From positions 18,602 to 82,601 of IMG/VR virus record IMGVR_UViG_3300024999_000072: a DNA stretch of 64,000 nt. One strand, written 5' to 3'. A program made the translations under genes and the position numbers. The DNA is from a virus. Positions 1-7,486 of this stretch are shown here, piece by piece (position 1 is the first letter of the stretch; every line of letters starts with the position of its first letter). The notes under the pieces were generated by a model. The model was not told where the DNA came from, made no database searches, and saw nothing but the letters and a program-made list of their open reading frames with translations.

Positions 1-6
1 GCTAGT

Positions 7-438
7 TTGGGGCTAGAAAATTATAAGGACTTAAAGATATTATTTAATGCCCAAACATCAAATGTAGTGGTAGCTGATATATCCCTAAAGCTAAACAACC
101 AAACAACAGGCTATAACTACTCAATTATTCAATCAAATACTGGCATTACTTGTTGGGGGCAAGAAGCATTTTCAAAGTACCCCCTAACAAAAGCCTCTGG
201 GAGTAATGATAGTAACTATGGACCTTCCTATGGGGAAATCAATATTTCAAATTACCCAACAACAAGACGTAAATATTTAATGAGTAATCATGTTGGGCGA
301 GACGGTAATGGGGTGCTTACTCAGTTTAGGGTAAGTGGATCTGTCAGTTTATTGACTGCTATCGATACTATATCACTAGTAATAGATAGTTATGCCTTTG
401 ATATAGGTAGTAGATTCGTTTTATGGGGGGTTAAGTAG
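7..438 (+). CDS. C-terminal part of tail fibre/receptor-binding protein (5' end outside window)
   Basis: Beta-rich, N/S/T-rich, ends GSRFVLWGVK as in many tail-fibre tips; followed by chaperone-like gene. Confidence 0.65.
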   Translation: MGLENYKDLKILFNAQTSNVVVADISLKLNNQTTGYNYSIIQSNTGITCWGQEAFSKYPLTKASGSNDSNYGPSYGEINISNYPTTRRKYLMSNHVGRDGNGVLTQFRVSGSVSLLTAIDTISLVIDSYAFDIGSRFVLWGVK

Positions 439-440
439 TT

Positions 441-896
441 ATGGCAGATAAGTTAATTATCACTAAGTACGGAGTAATGGAAGTTGACTTTACTCCAGAA
501 GAAATTGCACAAAGGGAACTAGAAAGAATTAATTCCCTGCCCTCTCTATCAGAAGCCCAACAACAAAAAATCCTAGAATTAAATACAGCTTGCAATCAAG
601 ATATTCTGAATGGATTCTCTTCTTCTTGCGCTGGTGTAGAGCACCAATACAAATTTGACCTAGAGTATCAAGCGAATATGAATCAAAAGGCTACAATGTT
701 TTTACTGACAAATGCCACAGAAACAAAGTGGCCTACTAAGGATGCAGGTGTGGTCATCCATGGTCGCGAACAGTTCATCCAGCTTTGCGTCGATGCTGAG
801 ACAATCAAAGAGGATAAGATTTATAGGTATTTTGTAATGAAGGCACAAGTGGAGGCGTGTGCAGAGATTGAAGATGTCGAAGCGTTTGTGTGGTGA
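441..896 (+). CDS. Tail fibre assembly/chaperone protein (DUF4376-like)
   Basis: KILELNTACNQDILNGF...EQFIQL...IEDVEAFVW pattern; directly follows tail fibre. Confidence 0.75.
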   Translation: MADKLIITKYGVMEVDFTPEEIAQRELERINSLPSLSEAQQQKILELNTACNQDILNGFSSSCAGVEHQYKFDLEYQANMNQKATMFLLTNATETKWPTKDAGVVIHGREQFIQLCVDAETIKEDKIYRYFVMKAQVEACAEIEDVEAFVW

Positions 897-901
897 GATG
901 A

Positions 902-1117
902 GTGAAAAAATATATTTGGAATTTACTTATCGCAATCGATCAACTTGTTAACACCATTCTAGGTGGTGATCCAGATGAAACAATGAGCTCAAGAATGGGT
1001 AAGCATCTAGTCAAGAAAGATAGTTTTTTATGTAAGATTATCTGTAAGTTATTAAATTTGATCGACAAGAATCACTGCGTTGATGCAATCGAAAAGGACG
1101 AGGGATTACCAATGTAG
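902..1117 (+). CDS. Conserved small phage membrane protein
   Basis: LLIAIDQLVNTILGGDPDETMSSRMGK motif common after tail-fibre chaperones. Confidence 0.7.
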   Translation: MKKYIWNLLIAIDQLVNTILGGDPDETMSSRMGKHLVKKDSFLCKIICKLLNLIDKNHCVDAIEKDEGLPM

Positions 1118-1130
1118 TTATTACGCAGTA

Positions 1131-1625
1131 GGTGGATTATGCATGTTGATTGTCGATAGAATTTCTTATTCTATAGGATTATCAAAACGACTCTACGCCG
1201 AAACGGCTTCAGGGGTTTGGGTTGGTAGTAGGCGTCAAGCAAAATCATTTAGTGGGCATATTTTAGGTACAATAATGACACTGGCATTAGGTATGATGGG
1301 TGGAGCTGTAAAAGTTGGTATACTTAGTAAATCTGGACGAGACAAGATAATCCCAAAAGGGTTAATATTCGGTATATCGTTTGGAGCTATAATAACAGGT
1401 TTAACAAGCGGATTCGCTATGAATAAGGTTAAACCTAAAGACGCAAACAGTAATCTTTCTTATGTTGCTGCTAGTGGTATATATGGAATAGTAACAGCTT
1501 TACTAATTTCTAAACTTGGGGATGATTCTTTATTTGACGCCAAGCCTCAAAACGATTACATTAAACCAACTATACCAACAGGCGAAGAAAAGAAGCAAAA
1601 TGTTATTGGAGTAGTTGCTAAATAA
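1131..1625 (+). pseudogene. Apparently 5'-truncated multi-pass membrane protein fragment
   Basis: Several TM segments; hydrophobic frame starts abruptly after TTACGCAGTA; only a weak RBS before ATG 1143. Confidence 0.5.
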
Positions 1626-1650
1626 TCAGATACTAAGAGTCAAAAAATAA

Positions 1651-1672
1651 AGGCACCCTTCGGGGTGTTTTT
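1651..1672 (+). terminator. Intrinsic terminator
   Basis: AGGCACCC-TTCG-GGGTGTTT followed by T run. Confidence 0.8.
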
Positions 1673-1803
1673 CCTTTGCCTAAAGCTTGTTTTTATGGCG
1701 CAGTATCAAATACTAAGCCTCGAAAATGCACTTTAACCCTTGGTATCACTGGTTTGTAGATATACAGTAGGTTTGACGCATTATGTTTAGTAGCATATGC
1801 AAG

Positions 1804-1838
1804 AAATCGACCCCCTGATTAAGCCAGGGGGTCGATTT
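1804..1838. terminator. Hairpin, likely terminator of the leftward gene at 1863-2210
   Basis: 14-bp perfect stem AAATCGACCCCCTG/CAGGGGGTCGATTT. Confidence 0.75.
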
Positions 1839-1862
1839 AATAATGAGAGGTGAAGGAAAATT

Positions 1863-2210
1863 TCAATTCGCTTTATTATTGGTTTCTTGATTGGCGTTGC
1901 TATTGGTAAGCTCTTTGATTACCTCTATGGCACATATAAAGGCAGATAGAGATAGGGCGAAGAGAATGGTTGTTGCAATAATTACCGACATATATAAAAA
2001 CGATTCGGGAGAAACATAGCCGTTAATTATCAATAGCGTCAACAACAGAGCTGTTGGAAAGCTAAAATAAAACTCTCTCTTGACTCTATCTATGTATTCC
2101 TTTGATGTATTCCCACTGGTACTCTCATCACCTTTAAAGATATACTGTAACCATTTTGCAAGATATGTAGCAATAATTCCGGAAACAATGCCGACGGTTA
2201 AATCATTCAA
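1863..2210 (-). CDS. 3-TM membrane moron protein
   Basis: Three hydrophobic helices; own promoter and terminator. Confidence 0.75.
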   Translation of the reverse strand: MNDLTVGIVSGIIATYLAKWLQYIFKGDESTSGNTSKEYIDRVKREFYFSFPTALLLTLLIINGYVSPESFLYMSVIIATTILFALSLSAFICAIEVIKELTNSNANQETNNKAN

Positions 2211-2256
2211 AATATTTCCCCCTACTTTCGTTAAGGATAGTCAGAGATAAATTCTA

Positions 2257-2283
2257 ATTCGACACAAAGGAGGAAAACCCTGT
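2257..2283 (-). promoter_or_regulatory. sigma-H-type promoter overlapping a 0A box
   Basis: Minus strand AGGG-N17-GAAT; contains TGTCGAA. Confidence 0.65.
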
Positions 2284-2310
2284 AAATAAAAAGAAACGCC
2301 CCAAAAGGCG

Positions 2311-3315
2311 TTATTGAACCAAGTATTGCTTATGCGACTGTTTTCTTTTTTCGTCGGACAGGACAGAGTAAATTAGCGTTGTAGCCGGATCCACGTGCCC
2401 GAGTAATCCCTGGACCGCGACTAGATCCGCTCCGTTGTTTAACATGAGCGTCGCGAAAGTATGGCGAAATATATGCGGATGCACGTTTTTCTTGACCTCT
2501 GAGCGGCCGGCAATGATTTTGACCTCGCGTTGGATGCCCTTGGTCGATAGTCTCCTGTATGGTTTGCGCACGGTTACGAATAGCGCGTCCACAGTGTCGG
2601 AACGCTTCTTTAAGTATTTCTGCAAGTGGTACATGGCCTTGAATGAGAAGTAGACTGTTCGTTCTTTATTGCCCTTACCGACCACTTGAACTGACATTGC
2701 CTGATAGTCAATATCTTGGCGATTTAGTTGTTGTACTTCAGTGAGACGGGCGCCTGTCGCGTAATAGACTTCAATCATTGCGCGTTCGCGCGGGGTTACG
2801 CAAGCCTCGCGGATCATCTCCAGTTCCTCGATAGTCAAGGCCTTCGGGGTTCTTTGCTCCTTTTTTGGTGGTTTGATCTGCTTGGTTACGTCGTTGGGAA
2901 TTATTTTCTCTGCTGCCAACCATCCGAACATTGATTTCAGAACAGACAATTTCTTGGATATTGACGAGGTTTTAAGGTAGTCAAATTCTCCGAGATAAAG
3001 ACGGATATCAGATGTGGTTACTTCATCAGTGGCCTTCGAGACGTGTTCGGAGAATATCCGGAGTTCCAATGTGTAGCTATCTAGGGTTAAAGGGCTTAGA
3101 CCTTCGAGACGTTTCCCAGCCAAGAACAGCTTTATCTTAGCCGCTAGATCGGGATGGCCGTTAGGAATCAAGGCAGGTTTGATGTCGTACTGGGACAGGA
3201 TCATGATTATAGTCTGCTGGAGTTGAAGCTTGTCCACTTTTGGGCAAAGTGAGTTAATGGCGCACATTATCTGCTCCAGCAGGATCTCGGCGGTCGAGCT
3301 AAGTATTTGAGCCAT
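2311..3315 (-). CDS. XerC/D-like tyrosine recombinase (second recombinase, not the att integrase)
   Basis: TGARLTE, GKGNKER, HPHIFRHTFAT, LLGH...TTLIY catalytic residues; N-terminal SAM-like domain. Confidence 0.95.
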   Translation of the reverse strand: MAQILSSTAEILLEQIMCAINSLCPKVDKLQLQQTIIMILSQYDIKPALIPNGHPDLAAKIKLFLAGKRLEGLSPLTLDSYTLELRIFSEHVSKATDEVTTSDIRLYLGEFDYLKTSSISKKLSVLKSMFGWLAAEKIIPNDVTKQIKPPKKEQRTPKALTIEELEMIREACVTPRERAMIEVYYATGARLTEVQQLNRQDIDYQAMSVQVVGKGNKERTVYFSFKAMYHLQKYLKKRSDTVDALFVTVRKPYRRLSTKGIQREVKIIAGRSEVKKNVHPHIFRHTFATLMLNNGADLVAVQGLLGHVDPATTLIYSVLSDEKRKQSHKQYLVQ

Positions 3316-3329
3316 ATCTTCTACTCCTC

Positions 3330-3430
3330 TTGTCTAACCCGGAGCGATCACTTACAATAATAAACGTAAGGCGCTCCGGTGTCCTTCTATGAGCACTCGT
3401 TCGGCTGCCAGGCTATGGACGGGTGCTTAC
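3330..3430 (+). ncRNA. Putative antisense sRNA over the recombinase leader
   Basis: TTGTCT-N17-TACAAT at 3330-3358 facing hairpin 3391-3428; no convincing plus-strand CDS. Confidence 0.5.
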
Positions 3431-3628
3431 CTTTGCGTATTTGTCAAATTTCTCGTTGATCCATTTGGCCGACTGCTCATACGCGGAAGCTCGGCCTTGT
3501 CGCCATTCATCCCCGGTCCTTTCGTAGTCGCTCTTGGTTTCAACTGCGCATTCTTCAATAAATTCAACATCGCTCTTGATAGAGATTAGTAATTCGATTA
3601 GCTGCTTTTTAGTTAGGTTTGCAAACAT
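3413..3628 (-). CDS. Small hypothetical protein
   Basis: RBS AAGGAGTG before ATG 3628. Confidence 0.75.
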   Translation of the reverse strand: MFANLTKKQLIELLISIKSDVEFIEECAVETKSDYERTGDEWRQGRASAYEQSAKWINEKFDKYAKVSTRP

Positions 3629-3638
3629 GGTTATCACT

Positions 3639-3667
3639 CCTTTCCGCCGGTATTGGCCCCGGCTGGC
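3639..3667 (-). repeat. Intergenic hairpin-RBS repeat, copy 1 (copy 2 at 14121-14146)
   Basis: CCTTTCCGCCGGTATTGGCCCCGGCTGGC vs CCTTTCGCCGGATTGGCCCGGCTGGC. Confidence 0.8.
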
Positions 3668-3673
3668 GGTTTA

Positions 3674-4348
3674 TTAAGAACTAATTCTTCCATTTGGAGA
3701 ACTGAAGCTTTTTCCGTCCTTGTAACCAGTCGAACGAGCGGAAGAACTTCCGGAACTAGCTATGCTTGAATGGCTACCTTTTTTTAGTTTCATATTTTCG
3801 TATTCTTGTATTACTAGGGCATCCTTAACTAGGACTAAGCCCCAATTACTCTCAACTATTTGTTGCTTAAACCTATCGCGTAAACCTTGAATCCAACCAC
3901 CCATATAGTCGTTTCGTAATCCTGCATCGGTGCTCATACCCTTAGATTTTCTTTCCTTAGAAAATTGCTTCACACCATATTTAATAGAATCGCATGCGAA
4001 CTCGAATGTTATTTTTGCCAAATCGACATCTTGATCTAGCCCGAGGAAAACAATGCATGAATTTCCATTTCGCGTGTTGGTATAATTGTGGCATCTAAAA
4101 TTCTCTGCAATTACTCGGGCAATTCCTTTCTTCCACCAAGCTAGTCGCTCGTAGTCCGTCTTCATTCTGACAACGTTTTTAACGCGAATATTATCTCCTT
4201 GTGCATCAACCTCAGATTGAGAAATTCCATTTTCAATCATAAGTTTTTGGGCCATGAGGATGCAGGATTGAGCCTCTTCTTCACTTGGGTTATTAGCGGC
4301 TTTATTTAAGAGTAAGTGAACCTTGTGGACTATTTTTTCGTTGGTCAT
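3674..4348 (-). CDS. DUF2786-domain protein
   Basis: KIVHKVHLLLNKAANNPSEEEAQSCILMAQKLM N-terminus. Confidence 0.85.
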   Translation of the reverse strand: MTNEKIVHKVHLLLNKAANNPSEEEAQSCILMAQKLMIENGISQSEVDAQGDNIRVKNVVRMKTDYERLAWWKKGIARVIAENFRCHNYTNTRNGNSCIVFLGLDQDVDLAKITFEFACDSIKYGVKQFSKERKSKGMSTDAGLRNDYMGGWIQGLRDRFKQQIVESNWGLVLVKDALVIQEYENMKLKKGSHSSIASSGSSSARSTGYKDGKSFSSPNGRISS

Positions 4349-4381
4349 GCTTGTTTCCCTCCTTAAATTTGATCTTAAGTT

Positions 4382-4432
4382 ATTATAACATAGTTACGTA
4401 ACCATTGCAATACTTTTGAGCTATGGTATAAT
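4382..4432. promoter_or_regulatory. Divergent sigma-A promoters sharing a palindromic TTGCAA -35, with GTTACGTAAC operator
   Basis: Minus: TTGCAA-N17-TATAAT; plus: TTGCAA-N16-TATAAT with extended TG; palindrome 4393-4402. Confidence 0.75.
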
Positions 4433-4450
4433 AACTTTGAGGTGATTATT

Positions 4451-4606
4451 TTGAGTATAGGGAAAGATAAGGTTAGGTCAAACCTGATCATAGAAAAGGA
4501 TATGAAGAAGGAATTGGAAGAAATAGCGAAGAGGCAGAACAGAAGTTTTAACAATCTTGTGATAACTATTCTTAAGGAGTACGTGGAAAAGAACGCCGAG
4601 GCTTGA
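4451..4606 (+). CDS. Ribbon-helix-helix (Arc/CopG-like) regulator, 51 aa, absent from ORF track
   Basis: Hand translation MSIGKDKVRSNLIIEKDMKKELEEIAKRQNRSFNNLVITILKEYVEKNAEA; RBS GAGGTGA. Confidence 0.85.
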   Translation: MSIGKDKVRSNLIIEKDMKKELEEIAKRQNRSFNNLVITILKEYVEKNAEA

Positions 4607-4656
4607 GCCCTGGCGTTCTTCATTTTTTATGGGTAGCAACGAAAGGATGGCGAAAG

Positions 4657-5067
4657 ATGAACGCAAAAGAGTTAACTCTAAACACCTTTATCGCGGCAGT
4701 GGGAACAATTATAAGTGCATGTCTTGGAGGATGGGATGCCGCACTGAGGGTTTTAATTGGCCTCATGATCGTCGACTATGCAACTGGATTCTTGGGCGCA
4801 GTCAAGGATCACAAAGTAAACAGCGAGGTAATGTACTGGGGAGGACTTCGAAAGGCCGGAATCCTTGTTGTGTTAGGCATTGCCGTTCAACTTGATCAGA
4901 TGGTCGGCAACTCTGCACCGATTCTCCGGACGCTGGCAATTTACTTTTATGTGTCTAGGGAAGGCATTTCGGTGACGGAGAACTTGGGTATTCTCGGGGT
5001 GCCGCTACCGCCCGGTATTACCAAGGTGTTGACTCAATTACAAGAGAAAGGGGATGAAACGAAATGA
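4657..5067 (+). CDS. Holin (TcdE/phage holin 4 family)
   Basis: LGGWD...MIVDYATG...EGISVTENLG motif; overlaps endolysin start. Confidence 0.93.
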   Translation: MNAKELTLNTFIAAVGTIISACLGGWDAALRVLIGLMIVDYATGFLGAVKDHKVNSEVMYWGGLRKAGILVVLGIAVQLDQMVGNSAPILRTLAIYFYVSREGISVTENLGILGVPLPPGITKVLTQLQEKGDETK

Positions 5068-5879
5068 AAGCGGTAATTAATTACGGTCATGGGCGAAAAG
5101 ACGTTGGGTATGATCCGGGAGCGGTCGGACCAACGGGATACCAAGAGGCTACCGAGAACCGTGAGGTTGGCGAGAAGGTAGTTGCAAAGCTGAAATCCAA
5201 CGGCTGGGATATACTCGCCATTCAAGATGGTGACCTAGACGATGTCACCGACCAATCGAACACTTACAAACCAAATGCCTTCCTCTCGATCCACGCCAAC
5301 TCCTTCGCTGATCCGGGTGCGCATGGGGTTGAAACCATAGCGCTCGGGCCTGGTGGGATGGGCGAGAAGATAGCCCGGGAGATCCAAAAGGAGTTAGTGG
5401 CAGCCACCGGACTCGCTGATCGAGGGGTGAAGTTTTCCAACCTGCACGTACTTAGGGAGACAAAGGGTTATCCTGCGGTTTTGGTGGAGATCGGCTTTAT
5501 TTCCAATCCGGAGGAAGAAGCGCTGATGAAGCAGGATACTTGGGATGAGATTGTAGCTTCGGCGTTATGCAGGGGGTTTAGCCGGGGTTCAGGAGTGCCT
5601 TATGTAGAGCGGATAGAGGGGGTAATAGGCGTGGGATTAGATGTAGCGGTTTTACTAAACACCAAGGAGGATTTCTGGGCGGGGGCTGACGTAGCTGCCA
5701 AGAATGGCAACTGTGCGGTGTTTGTGCGTGGTGAGGGTCGATCTGTTCCTGCCGAGGCTATGAGGGCCAAGCAGCTAATCATAGTTGGCGGGGCCACGAC
5801 CAAGCACCCGAACGAAGTGCTTCTCTCTGGGGAGACGAAGTTCGACACGGCTGAGGCGGTTGGGAAGTATTTGAGGTAG
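5064..5879 (+). CDS. Endolysin, N-acetylmuramoyl-L-alanine amidase (Amidase_3)
   Basis: GHG, FLSIHANS, PAVLVEIGFISN zinc-amidase motifs; C-terminal wall-binding-like domain. Confidence 0.95.
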   Translation: MKAVINYGHGRKDVGYDPGAVGPTGYQEATENREVGEKVVAKLKSNGWDILAIQDGDLDDVTDQSNTYKPNAFLSIHANSFADPGAHGVETIALGPGGMGEKIAREIQKELVAATGLADRGVKFSNLHVLRETKGYPAVLVEIGFISNPEEEALMKQDTWDEIVASALCRGFSRGSGVPYVERIEGVIGVGLDVAVLLNTKEDFWAGADVAAKNGNCAVFVRGEGRSVPAEAMRAKQLIIVGGATTKHPNEVLLSGETKFDTAEAVGKYLR

Positions 5880-5893
5880 GAAGGAGGTCTAAC

Positions 5894-6238
5894 ATGCCTA
5901 AAGCAAAACTTAGGCCATGCAAAGACGGTGCTCAAGAATACAATCTGCTATGGATTTGGTGCCCAGGATGTAACGAGTACCACGCTGTTAAAGTAAATAT
6001 TCCTAGTGGCTGGGGATGGAACGGAAACCAAGAAGCGCCAACTATTACACCTTCAATATTAGTGCGGGGCACAAAGCCGATCAGCGACGAAGAGGCCGAA
6101 AGAATCCTGCGAGGAGAGCACATCGAACCAATACGGACGGTTTGCCATAGTTTTGTCACAGACGGAAAGATTCAATTCCTCGGAGATTGCACCCATGTAC
6201 TTGCAGGTCAGACGGTGGAATTGCCAGAGGTAGATTAA
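5894..6238 (+). CDS. DUF6527-like Cys/His protein
   Basis: WCPGC..H, WNGN...PTITPSI, CHSFVTDGKIQFLGDCTH. Confidence 0.8.
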   Translation: MPKAKLRPCKDGAQEYNLLWIWCPGCNEYHAVKVNIPSGWGWNGNQEAPTITPSILVRGTKPISDEEAERILRGEHIEPIRTVCHSFVTDGKIQFLGDCTHVLAGQTVELPEVD

Positions 6239-6556: not shown

Positions 6557-6775
6557 ATGCAGGAAGAAAAAGTATGGTATAAATCCCTCACCCTATGGGG
6601 TGCAATTGTTACGGTCCTAGCCGCACTAGCTGGGATATTTGGCATTGACATTGACTCGAACACACAGAAAGAAGTCGTTGAATATCTTGTCGTTGGAGCA
6701 AGTGCTATCGGCGGATTAGTAGCGGCCTATGGGCGTATTAGGGCGAAGGCCAGGATAGTTAAAGTTATTAAATAG
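6557..6775 (+). CDS. Second holin-like 2-TM protein
   Basis: KVWYKSLTLWG start, two TM helices, basic tail; in lysis module. Confidence 0.75.
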   Translation: MQEEKVWYKSLTLWGAIVTVLAALAGIFGIDIDSNTQKEVVEYLVVGASAIGGLVAAYGRIRAKARIVKVIK

Positions 6776-6782
6776 ACATGAT

Positions 6783-6816
6783 AAAGCCCCGGGTCGTAAT
6801 GACTCGGGGCTTTTTT
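6783..6816. terminator. Bidirectional intrinsic terminator ending the lysis module
   Basis: AAAGCCCCGGGTC-GTAAT-GACTCGGGGCTTTTTT. Confidence 0.9.
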
Positions 6817-6985
6817 GCGTTTTATCAGTTACTTTCCTTAAATAAATCAGGTTTGGCTTCAGCAAGTGCCTTAGCTCTCCTTAAGAACTCAATCTTAGTA
6901 ATTCCGAGTTCCTTGCATACTTTTTCAAAGGATTCTTTTTCTTCCGGGAATACATCGAATCTAAGTACTACTTTGCCTTGTGCCA

Positions 6986-7486
6986 TTATAGATTATTCTC
7001 CTTCATGAATATTATTTTTGCACGTTCGAAATCGGAATCAACCTTATCTTTAGCCATCGGAGCTGCCTTAACCAGCATATTGACCACGTCTTTCTGTAGA
7101 TACCATGTAATTGGCTTGCTATGCGAATATTCCAGATTATCCCCGAACAGGTGCAGGTTTATGGTTTCCTGAGACGCAAGAGAAGAAATACACTTAACAT
7201 GGTCCTCGCGAGTGAGATTAAAAAACACTTCCATCTTGCATGGATCTCCTGGATAGTCATGGATCGTGATCGGCATCCGGATGAGGGGGAATCCGTTGAT
7301 TGAGTGTAATTCGACGCTTATTTCGATCTTGGCCGTTTTCATTTCTCGGGATTTGATCTCCTTGGTGGATAGGCGGACCAGAAGGTCTGTTTGCCAGTTT
7401 ACGCCGTCCGCAGATGCGAAAGTAGGGAGACAACCGTAGCCGATTTTTCGGAAGGCTTGGATTTCGATGTAATTTAGCTCAATCAT
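6986..7486 (-). CDS. Hypothetical protein
   Basis: 166-aa ORF coupled to the methyltransferase gene. Confidence 0.75.
   Translation of the reverse strand: MIELNYIEIQAFRKIGYGCLPTFASADGVNWQTDLLVRLSTKEIKSREMKTAKIEISVELHSINGFPLIRMPITIHDYPGDPCKMEVFFNLTREDHVKCISSLASQETINLHLFGDNLEYSHSKPITWYLQKDVVNMLVKAAPMAKDKVDSDFERAKIIFMKENNL

Follow-up and report, generated by a model that had tools for sequence, protein, structure and literature searches.

A candidate hot spot of Xer-type recombination where the tail-fibre operon ends in a phage that most likely infects Desulfosporosinus

How did part of a membrane-protein gene come to lie inside a short conserved sequence at the end of a phage tail-fibre operon, and is the Xer-like tyrosine recombinase encoded nearby responsible for it? 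The question is raised by a stretch of 64,000 nucleotides (hereafter the window), which covers bases 18602-82601 of the linear 82,601-base IMG/VR virus record IMGVR_UViG_3300024999_000072 (CheckV completeness estimate 85%). The packaging, head, tail and baseplate genes of the same record are located upstream of the window. Positions given below are those of the window unless a locus is named, and its features are collected in Table 1. From sequence comparison, and with a probability of about 0.45, we propose that site-specific recombination of Xer type has a hot spot here, where the tail-fibre operon of a Desulfosporosinus phage ends, and that the recombinase would drive the capture and exchange of gene cassettes.

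A first-pass annotation of this DNA had described a recombination site split by a captured gene fragment, with ACGCAGTA (1123-1130) and TCAGATACTAAG (1626-1637) as the separated parts and GCGCAGTATCAAATACTAAG (1698-1717) as an intact copy. All three strings were found in place, and the similarity proved longer than the annotation had given, with 31 of the 39 positions of 1688-1726 identical. On the left, 1113-1130 agrees with 1688-1705 at 14/18 positions, and on the right 1625-1646 agrees with 1705-1726 at 18/22. Split matches to the target 1688-1726 were scored for every split point and every position in 1000-1687, and the best of these (31/39) has its halves at 1113 and 1625. First-order Markov simulations yielded best split matches of 24.4 +/- 1.07 with a maximum of 29. 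Because none of 2000 simulations attained 31/39, the split is not explained by chance. The insertion was conservative, the target having neither lost nor gained bases. The AGTAT-N3-ATACT palindrome that had been pointed out in the intact copy is present, but it is specific to the window, and relatives read ATAATCAAATACT. A separately assembled Logan contig of 679 nucleotides (nt), from a run that is possibly the source sample, spans 1086-1764 and both junctions with 0 differences.

The inserted DNA had been taken for a 5'-truncated membrane-protein gene that ends at its own stop codon, and both halves of this description were borne out. The open reading frame (ORF) from the in-frame Met at 1143, which stands behind GGTGGA, has 51 database homologues, and 18/18 aligned homologues start approximately 21 residues before the window's Met. 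Full-length copies have ~17 more conserved N-terminal codons; the conserved N-terminus of the homologues, M.KIKDRQYLGGIAGLAGG, is absent from the window, and the window's upstream frame is unrelated to the homologues until GGLCM. At the nucleotide level, homology (79-89%) begins at 1127 in 8/8 metagenome loci with full-length or N-terminal copies and halts at 1614-1637 in 6/6 metagenome loci that extend that far. In these metagenome loci both flanks are unrelated to the window and to one another. Since homology is confined to 1127-1625 and the N-terminus is missing, the fragment runs from approximately codon 17 to the gene's own stop. No relative of the captured gene was found among the related viral loci and contigs searched.

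The split sequence belongs to a family of sites in related phages. We gathered 46 related viral loci with the recombinase as probe and collected every GACGCATTATG with at most one mismatch in all loci, which yielded 35 distinct contexts, of which 27 were judged to be real sites. The aligned sites read [..(C/A)(G/A)CAGTA][GAC(G/C/T)CA][TTATG(C/T)GCAG.], which fits the 11+6+11 layout of dif, the 28-bp parse being drawn by analogy. Arm letters recur in the dif sites of E. coli (GGTGCGCATAA-TGTATA-TTATGTTAAAT) and of other proteobacteria (PMC2731167), and in pdif sites, for example GATTCGCATAA and TTATGTTAAAT (PMC13141974, Table 1). A survey of the core GACGCATTATG in the 20 loci (214,788 nt) that encode a recombinase of 67% identity or more found 25 cores, 25/25 in the window's orientation and 0 opposite. 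All but one of these (24/25) lie 41-4807 nt past the recombinase stop, and 18/20 loci have at least one. The core occurs once in the 82.6-kb record; the chance expectation is ~1.3 per 82.6 kb, both strands counted. Phages with a recombinase at most 60% identical have the same synteny slot (tail fibre / lysis genes) without the site. The gene for a 71-aa conserved phage protein, which closes the tail-fibre module and is found in 40 related viral loci, has its stop codon TAG at 1115-1117 in the window, and in relatives a recombination-type site comes after the stop of this gene. In L053, L057 and L059 the stop is followed by TTATGTCGCAGTA GACGCA TTATG(C/T)..., a site of minimal length in which the left end of the conserved element described below abuts its right end without the 69-nt interior.

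Read in this 28-bp frame, the disrupted site in the window is arm ATTACGCAGTA, then GGTGGA, then TTATGCATGTT ... fragment ... GCTAAATAA, then TCAGAT, then ACTAAG..., and the fragment thus sits exactly at the arm/central junction. The four letters AGTA (1127-1130) are common to the phage arm and the donor gene, and the donor gene has TTATG exactly 6 nt after the crossover; the same TTATG letters stand in 3/6 full-length homologues, the remaining ones reading TTGTG. At the right end of the fragment, the gene's own ..AAATAA resembles the arm's inner ..CATAA. When a position weight matrix (PWM) was trained on 40 sites from other loci, the hybrid site 1120-1147 scored 15.6 bits and was the second of only two hits above 12 bits in the 82.6-kb record on both strands. 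The arm at 1120-1130 closes the homology with a small-gene module of L042, L017 and L004, and the BLAST alignment with L042 carries on to 1147.

Relatives vary at these sites. The annotation had supposed that DNA is inserted or swapped here, and the variation is found exactly at the sites, where different genes (tailspike-like or accessory genes led by a ribbon-helix-helix (RHH) gene) stand between direct copies. In at least 6 loci, 2-3 direct sites bracket different genes; most relatives carry just one core, immediately adjoining the recombinase gene. The fullest example is L042, a 71.7-kb contig with three direct sites. The first is a minimal site after the 71-aa gene, followed by a 63-aa RHH-like gene that has a promoter and a terminator of its own, a Phage_gp49_66 gene and a full element; after the second site come a 154-aa gene, a second RHH copy and two small genes, and the third site, again a full element, is followed by a terminator and then the recombinase. 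Copies of the RHH module are also found in L005, L009, L024, L038, L046, L107 and L108, and a site precedes 6/7 copies, the upstream genes differing. L020 and L022 share 105 nt (93%), from inside site 1 through approximately 25 N-terminal codons, and they also share site 2; between the sites they hold unrelated genes of 544 and 530 aa, one of which encodes a pectate-lyase-like beta-helix of the kind seen in tailspikes. Different sites combine the left-arm and right-arm types in different ways. Homology breakpoints fall at the arm/central border in this window and at the element interior, at the central/right-arm border in L052, and immediately after the arm in the X4 contig from another sample, which has its loose end at 1131. 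An allele without the insert had been suggested as something to look for, and one contig from the probable source sample does join 1120 to 1772 via seven other letters, giving a minimal site and no insert, but it belongs to a different phage and is not an excision product. Modules bounded on both sides by 28-bp Xer-type sites are present in L020/L022, in L042 and in contig C254 of the Desulfosporosinus metagenome-assembled genome (MAG) G001, where, at L115:4100-7000, a BspA-LRR/Big_3 gene is bracketed by two direct dif-like sites. No empty counterpart of this last island was found, the other genomes carrying unrelated DNA there and no single site, which is neutral for the cassette model.

The RHH module measures ~300 nt and consists of a TTATGCGCATAA-type palindrome, an extended -10 promoter, the 63-aa RHH-like gene and a GGCACCC..GGGTG terminator. 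It is also seen at L059:5230-5520 and 6720-6990, with a different gene after each copy. The 63-aa protein had no Pfam match, and it is possible that these modules are toxin-antitoxin-like or regulated accessory-gene units. In the window, the sequence to the right of the captured fragment (1626-1646) corresponds to the start of the element interior and is followed by a terminator of the type that closes RHH cassettes in relatives, from which it appears that the ancestor already carried a composite array at this place. The hairpin of that terminator lies at ~1652-1669, with a minus-strand terminator-like match at 1654-1667.

The annotation had listed the intact copy and GACGCA with its right arm as two related sites. 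Their sequences are indeed conserved, but they are the left and right ends of one element of ~98 nt (1693-1791). A counterpart of ~95-100 nt, 83-85% identical, is present in 9 viral contigs, in which the recombinase gene is ~75% identical. In a scan with the exact degenerate pattern of the interior, 9/9 viral and 2/2 genome contigs that matched also hold the recombinase, within ~1.3 kb. The site at 1764-1791 has a poor left arm (below 12 bits with the PWM) because the interior separates the left arm from the central region. Several accounts of the element were tried and dropped. A coding reading fails in the window, where the frame from ATG 1695 stops after 13 codons; a sigma-70 promoter scan found no match inside the element, and an Rfam scan of 800-4600 found one sub-threshold match only (18.9 bits vs a gathering score of 47). 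A hairpin of attC type was rejected, since single-stranded DNA of three copies, folded on both strands, gave z values of -0.11 to -0.91 vs shuffles and the covariation is modest, with 4 pairs changed on both sides, a figure reached by 30/500 shuffles; the consensus fold is -5.3 kcal/mol. An invertible switch was also considered on the strength of a 12/13 match between 1706-1718 and, inverted, 3298-3310 in the first codons of the recombinase. This idea was not upheld, as a 13-mer with one mismatch is approximately at chance level in 2.7 kb and the ATGGC/ATGTC co-variation is inconsistent; the inverted arrangement of the two stretches was seen in no relative. A somewhat wider likeness exists in that the first codons (ATGGC TCAAATACTTAGCTCGA.., 3270-3315, minus strand) resemble, inverted, the left end of the element, ATGGCGCAGTA TCAAATACTAAGCCTCGA.. 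(1695-1726). The 5' stretch of the recombinase gene, CAAATACTTAGCTC.ACCGCCGAG, is nearly invariant in DNA among homologues that are 67-87% identical overall. The inverted likeness could be chance or a further cis site.

A complete recombinase like XerC/D, separate from the att integrase and about 0.5 kb away, had been predicted, and this is what the family searches indicate. The gene has its 3' end 520 bp from the end of the element (1791 to 2311) and encodes a protein with a Pfam Phage_integrase match (8e-35) and a SAM-like N-terminal domain. Among NCBIfam models it reached 220.4 bits with XerA (cut-off 220), 209.5 with XerD (329.6) and 208.1 with XerC (335.15), so that the equivalog scores for XerC and XerD, like that for XerS, are below cut-off. 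Of the solved structures, E. coli XerD (1a0p, E 4.4e-35) is nearest and archaeal XerA comes next. In the alignment with 1a0p the motifs ATGAR, GKGNKER, HxxR, LLGH and IY all align and the catalytic set R-K-H-R-H-Y is intact; the protein carries ~60 extra N-terminal residues. Not every homologue looks whole. In L057:6577-10047 (= L017; IMG/VR 3300024999_001770) the recombinase gene is split near the position matching window 2465 by an insert of ~3.5 kb, with three consecutive Phage_integrase-family ORFs of 346, 323 and 419 aa resembling a 'recombinase trio' element. In L023, L038, L043, L045 and L046 the homologue appears as two tblastn pieces with a frame change or gap, and some of these copies may be frameshifted or decaying.

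Table 1. Coordinates of the features at the locus and elsewhere in the window
Feature	Position	Strand	Remarks
Tail-fibre gene, end only	start of window		
DUF4376 tail-fibre-type gene	441-896		
71-aa conserved phage protein, final conserved gene of the tail-fibre module	902..1117	+	phrog_3342, E 2.4e-20
Split site 1, left arm ATTACGCAGTA	1120..1130	+	matches aligned-site left arms ATGTCGCAGTA / ATTACGCAGTA
Captured 5'-truncated membrane-protein gene	1127..1625	+	begins at codon ~17 of the ~181-aa family and extends through the gene's stop
Hybrid-site part, pseudo central region and right arm, GGTGGA TTATGCATGTT	1131..1147	+	fragment-derived
Split site, right-hand remainder TCAGATACTAAGAGTCAAAAA	1626..1646	+	homologous to start of element interior (1706-1726)
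Terminator, type closing RHH cassettes of relatives	1642..1677	+	31/36 identical to L059 5499-5534, E 0.013
Conserved ~98-nt element	1693..1791	+	
Element left arm ATGGCGCAGTA	1695-1705		
Element interior	1706-1774		69 nt
Element central region GACGCA	1775-1780		
Element right arm TTATGTTTAGT	1781-1791		
Bidirectional terminator	1804..1838		perfect 14-nt inverted repeat, 7-nt loop
115-aa membrane-protein cassette, leftward	1863..2210	-	ORF, between site and recombinase
Xer-like 'armless' tyrosine recombinase	2311..3315	-	334 aa, apparently intact
Second integrase-family gene	22632-23672		distinct from the Xer-like recombinase

In the scheme that we favour, the unit of recombination would be the ~28-bp dif-like site, with left arm ..CGCAGTA, a 6-bp central region GACNCA and right arm TTATG(C/T)GCAG. 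The armless Xer-like recombinase would bind both arms and cut at the borders of the central region, and host Xer proteins may act likewise in phages without the recombinase. Because direct copies bracket exchangeable genes, recombination between genomes, or between a site and a circle, could add, remove or swap cassettes. In the window, a circle or donor segment with part of a host-type membrane-protein gene would have recombined at site 1 via pseudo-sites, namely TTAGTA/GGTGGA/TTATGC at the 5' side of the gene and AAATAA at its stop codon. A crossover exactly at the left-arm/central junction would fit a first-strand (XerC-like) exchange, which may have been completed by replication or by Holliday-junction resolution, and the expected product order would be arm, fragment and old central-side sequence. 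Vibriophage VGJphi is described as integrating by XerC-only strand exchange at dif-like sites with differing central regions (PMC5357621). We infer both the order of these events and that the junctions were made by the recombinase rather than by another process. A broader version, which we offer more tentatively still, is that a phage-encoded 'dif-module' system may swap whole tailspike genes, along with accessory or defence-type cassettes, among co-resident phages and remnants of prophages, and may pick up parts of host genes when single strands are exchanged at pseudo-sites.

Several observations weigh against a recombinase-driven hot spot. The conserved 69-nt interior, between the left arm and the central region, has no explanation in the model. 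The dyad symmetry of the arms is weak (approximately 3-6/11 positions in a hand comparison of sites). Each site comes after a stop codon and before a terminator or the next ribosome-binding site, a placement that also suits a transcript-level or regulatory signal. When 42 Desulfosporosinus genomes were scanned with a 16-nt site pattern at no more than one mismatch, 19 hits were found in 11 genomes, vs 4 for a reversed-pattern control; only 2/19 adjoin a recombinase homologue, and 17/19 have none in the flanks fetched. Among 14 newly fetched loci, 4 have the order tail-side gene, site, terminator and lysis genes, without a recombinase. Of five genomes searched, four with sites (G042, G009, G015 and G005) yielded no recombinase homologue at E <= 1e-40. 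Since sites are present without the recombinase, the motif could have another function or serve host Xer proteins; a recombinase acting in trans, host Xer proteins and a function outside recombination are all possible. No recombination product was found among assembled (Logan) contigs, which cannot show rare junction reads. Finally, the right junction shares only ATAA with the arm, and 4-base microhomologies also fit illegitimate recombination.

These points lead to the main rival explanation, which we regard as rather unlikely. It holds that the 28-bp motif is a conserved end-of-operon signal serving as a shared 'linker' for homologous or illegitimate recombination, that illegitimate recombination guided by microhomology (AGTA at the left junction and ATAA at the right) brought the fragment in, and that the job of the recombinase is unrelated. 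Occurrence of the motif in prophages and genomes without the recombinase, its constant place between stop codon and terminator or ribosome-binding site, and junction microhomologies of just 4 nt would all agree with this, and the position of the TTATGCGCATAA palindromes, ahead of the promoter of the RHH gene, is one that would befit an RHH operator. In T4-type phages, conserved promoter-stem-loop boundaries are known points of mosaic exchange. However, an insertion that is conservative to the base within a 31/39 match does not favour this explanation, nor is a junction at exactly the predicted cleavage position, with TTATG 6 nt further on, predicted by illegitimate recombination. Moreover, the motif has the arm letters of dif and pdif and tracks the clade of the recombinase.

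A single-site housekeeping function is improbable, though it would account for the single core beside the recombinase in most relatives. Under this explanation the recombinase and its adjacent site would form a self-contained module, like XerS/difSL or Cre/loxP, which resolves multimers of a phage genome in replication or in a plasmid-like state or provides a second means of integration, and the extra sites and the fragment would be rare by-products. There are precedents in XerS, which is genetically linked to its own site as one module (PMC5357621), and in Tyroviruses, for which a structural-module Xer-like recombinase with an 11-6-11 repeat after its stop is described (PMC9703825). It is harder to reconcile with at least 6 loci having 2-3 direct sites around different genes and with relatives whose homology breaks at the sites, and a resolution site need not follow tail genes or flank tailspike genes. 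Very unlikely is a hitch-hiking element, in which the leftward block (recombinase, 74-aa ORF, DUF7168/DUF2786 gene and variable leftward gene) would be a small integrative element that targets a conserved phage site, the site by the recombinase being its occupied attachment site. The recombinase always abuts a site, related prophages show what could be the unoccupied arrangement of site, terminator and lysis genes, and the G+C content rises from ~0.36-0.39 to 0.46-0.50 across 2250-3750; yet there is no second site at the other end of the block (no PWM hit above 12 bits in 1800-4700), the spacer at 4348-4440 holds divergent promoters only, and the block is syntenic in many relatives. A true integron or an assembly artefact, which array-like direct repeats beside a tyrosine recombinase and the metagenomic origin of the assembly might suggest, is effectively refuted, and the annotation's term 'integron-like' is not supported in its strict sense, because integron-integrase models score far below cut-off (TIGR02249 113.4 bits in two pieces vs 265; NF011946 64 vs 435), the element has no attC-type fold, the recombinase gene converges on the cassettes from the distal side of the array, the junctions share 4-5 nt, too few for a k-mer chimera, and the second assembly bridges them without a difference.

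The proposed hot spot can be set beside known systems, and it is plausible that the locus is a variant of Xer/dif-module recombination. Single-recombinase Xer/dif modules (XerS/difSL, XerH/difH and archaeal XerA) likewise have an armless Xer-type recombinase with the full catalytic set, and the candidate ~28-bp site adjoining the phage gene can be read in their 11+6+11 layout, with ..CGCA(T/G)(A/T)A and TTATG.. arms (PMC5357621). The present system differs in being phage-borne, in its place at the end of a tail operon rather than at the replication terminus, in having several direct copies per genome, and in a recombinase that falls short of the XerC/XerD/XerS equivalogs and has an N-terminal extension. 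In the pdif/dif modules of Acinetobacter, too, 28-bp Xer-type sites with similar arm letters stand on both sides of accessory genes, toxin-antitoxin-like pairs among them, and modules are shuffled among replicons (PMC13141974). There, pdif sites alternate between C/D and D/C (PMC13141974, Table 1), whereas here 25 point one way and 0 the other; they use host XerC/XerD, whereas here the element has its own recombinase gene, the replicon is viral and tailspike-like genes are among the cargo. Integrons share a recombinase-linked array that gains genes at a fixed junction and secondary-site capture at a short core. They differ in integrase family, in their hairpin attC sites and in an integrase divergent from the adjacent attI at the head of the array, whereas here the recombinase is convergent at the distal end and cassettes have their own promoters and terminators.

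Among phage systems, the Rin shufflon of Bifidobacterium prophages likewise belongs to a temperate phage of Gram-positive bacteria and has an XerD-like armless recombinase that is distinct from the integrase of the phage, adjoins receptor-binding genes and comes with short crossover sites in several copies (PMC6109161). Rin inverts C-terminal gene segments between 11-bp rix sites (PMC6109161), whereas here whole genes stand between direct dif-like sites. A tail-fibre shufflon or invertase switch (Rin, Min, Gin, Cin) does not fit the locus, with 0 opposite cores in the 214,788 nt surveyed and whole genes that have their own starts. Tyrovirus gp50 is also a second or third tyrosine recombinase in the late region of a Firmicutes phage with an 11+6+11 site immediately downstream, but it lies between neck and tape-measure genes and has perfect inverted repeats, and neither cassettes nor multiple copies are described for it (PMC9703825). 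The integrative mobile elements exploiting Xer (IMEX; CTXphi, VGJphi and TLCphi) resemble the proposed capture in inserting at a dif-like site by exchange of one strand pair on the XerC side, unlike central regions being tolerated (PMC5357621). They are whole phages that enter host dif through host Xer proteins, whereas here a gene fragment entered a phage site, and the phage encodes an Xer-like enzyme itself. The literature searched for tail-fibre cassette systems of phages with dif-like sites offered nothing closer than the Rin shufflon and Tyrovirus gp50.

Desulfosporosinus is the most probable host on two kinds of sequence evidence: two contigs of Desulfosporosinus MAGs carry the element together with close recombinase homologues (83-84% identical), and the captured gene has distant homologues under the names Desulfosporosinus or Peptococcaceae. 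Three Desulfosporosinus genomes were scanned for the host dif with a dif half-site, and control matches were as many as matches. The island with the BspA-LRR/Big_3 gene is 2.8 kb long and stands directly after the 3' end (..GGTTCGATCCCGCTTACCTCCACCA) of a putative transfer-messenger RNA gene, which was recognised by eye alone. In another Desulfosporosinus MAG (L114:9258-12917, contig C229) a good site copy and a terminator follow genes for TIR-domain, ThsB-like and DUF4231 proteins, with no gene of this phage record nearby. This site faces two ORFs whose starts, read by eye, are reminiscent of DUF421 and DUF4363.

On the far side of the element, the leftward block of the window has the order 115-aa membrane protein, 334-aa tyrosine recombinase, 74-aa ORF and DUF7168/DUF2786 protein, and beyond it lie an Arc-like RHH gene, a holin and an amidase. 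The 115-aa protein had no match in family-library scans. Its gene is preceded by a conserved leader at ~2211-2290; the same leader (..AATTTCGACACAAA.GAGGAAAACCCTGTAAA.., plus strand), read by eye, heads unrelated leftward genes in L004, L005/L008, L007, L013 and L036, and the leftward genes that bear it stand between site and recombinase. The region is a compositional mosaic, with a G+C content of 0.34-0.40 in the tail-fibre end and the captured fragment, 0.46-0.50 across 2250-3750 (recombinase block) and 0.47-0.56 across 4650-6150 (holin/amidase). A megablast search of 1-4400 against phage GenBank records gave no match. In the more distant loci L025-L029, recombinase homologues 57-60% identical have, instead of a dif-like site, paired palindromes of GTTATATAAC type just upstream of the gene (for example L026:5893-5975: 16 nt, 100% complementary, 32 nt apart), which may be a recombination site of their own or an operator. 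In L026 (IMG/VR 2531839499_000003) a diversity-generating retroelement lies at 2395-5319, just upstream of the recombinase homologue (59% identical). Its reverse transcriptase matches RVT_1 (3.6e-21), its 95-nt template and variable repeats (2771-2865 and 4613-4707) are 86% identical, and the repeat pair is at the 3' end of a 424-aa tail protein gene.

Phage mosaicism at tail-fibre and accessory loci is usually ascribed to homologous or illegitimate recombination, and the known programmed systems are invertase switches, shufflons and diversity-generating retroelements. Should the motif prove to be a boundary signal, it would still be a sharply conserved and unexplained late-operon-end signal in this phage group. 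Should the hot spot exist as proposed, it would be a further programmed mechanism, akin to the dif modules of Acinetobacter plasmids but viral and equipped with an enzyme of its own. Short sites and a simple 334-aa enzyme put the idea within direct reach of plasmid assays. The exactly bounded captured fragment would then be a rare natural footprint of secondary-site recombination, and the system could account for the movement of tailspikes and accessory genes as sharply delimited units. For these phages it would mean that changes of host range and the acquisition of accessory genes can be driven by a recombinase, in a way distinct from integrons, shufflons and diversity-generating retroelements.

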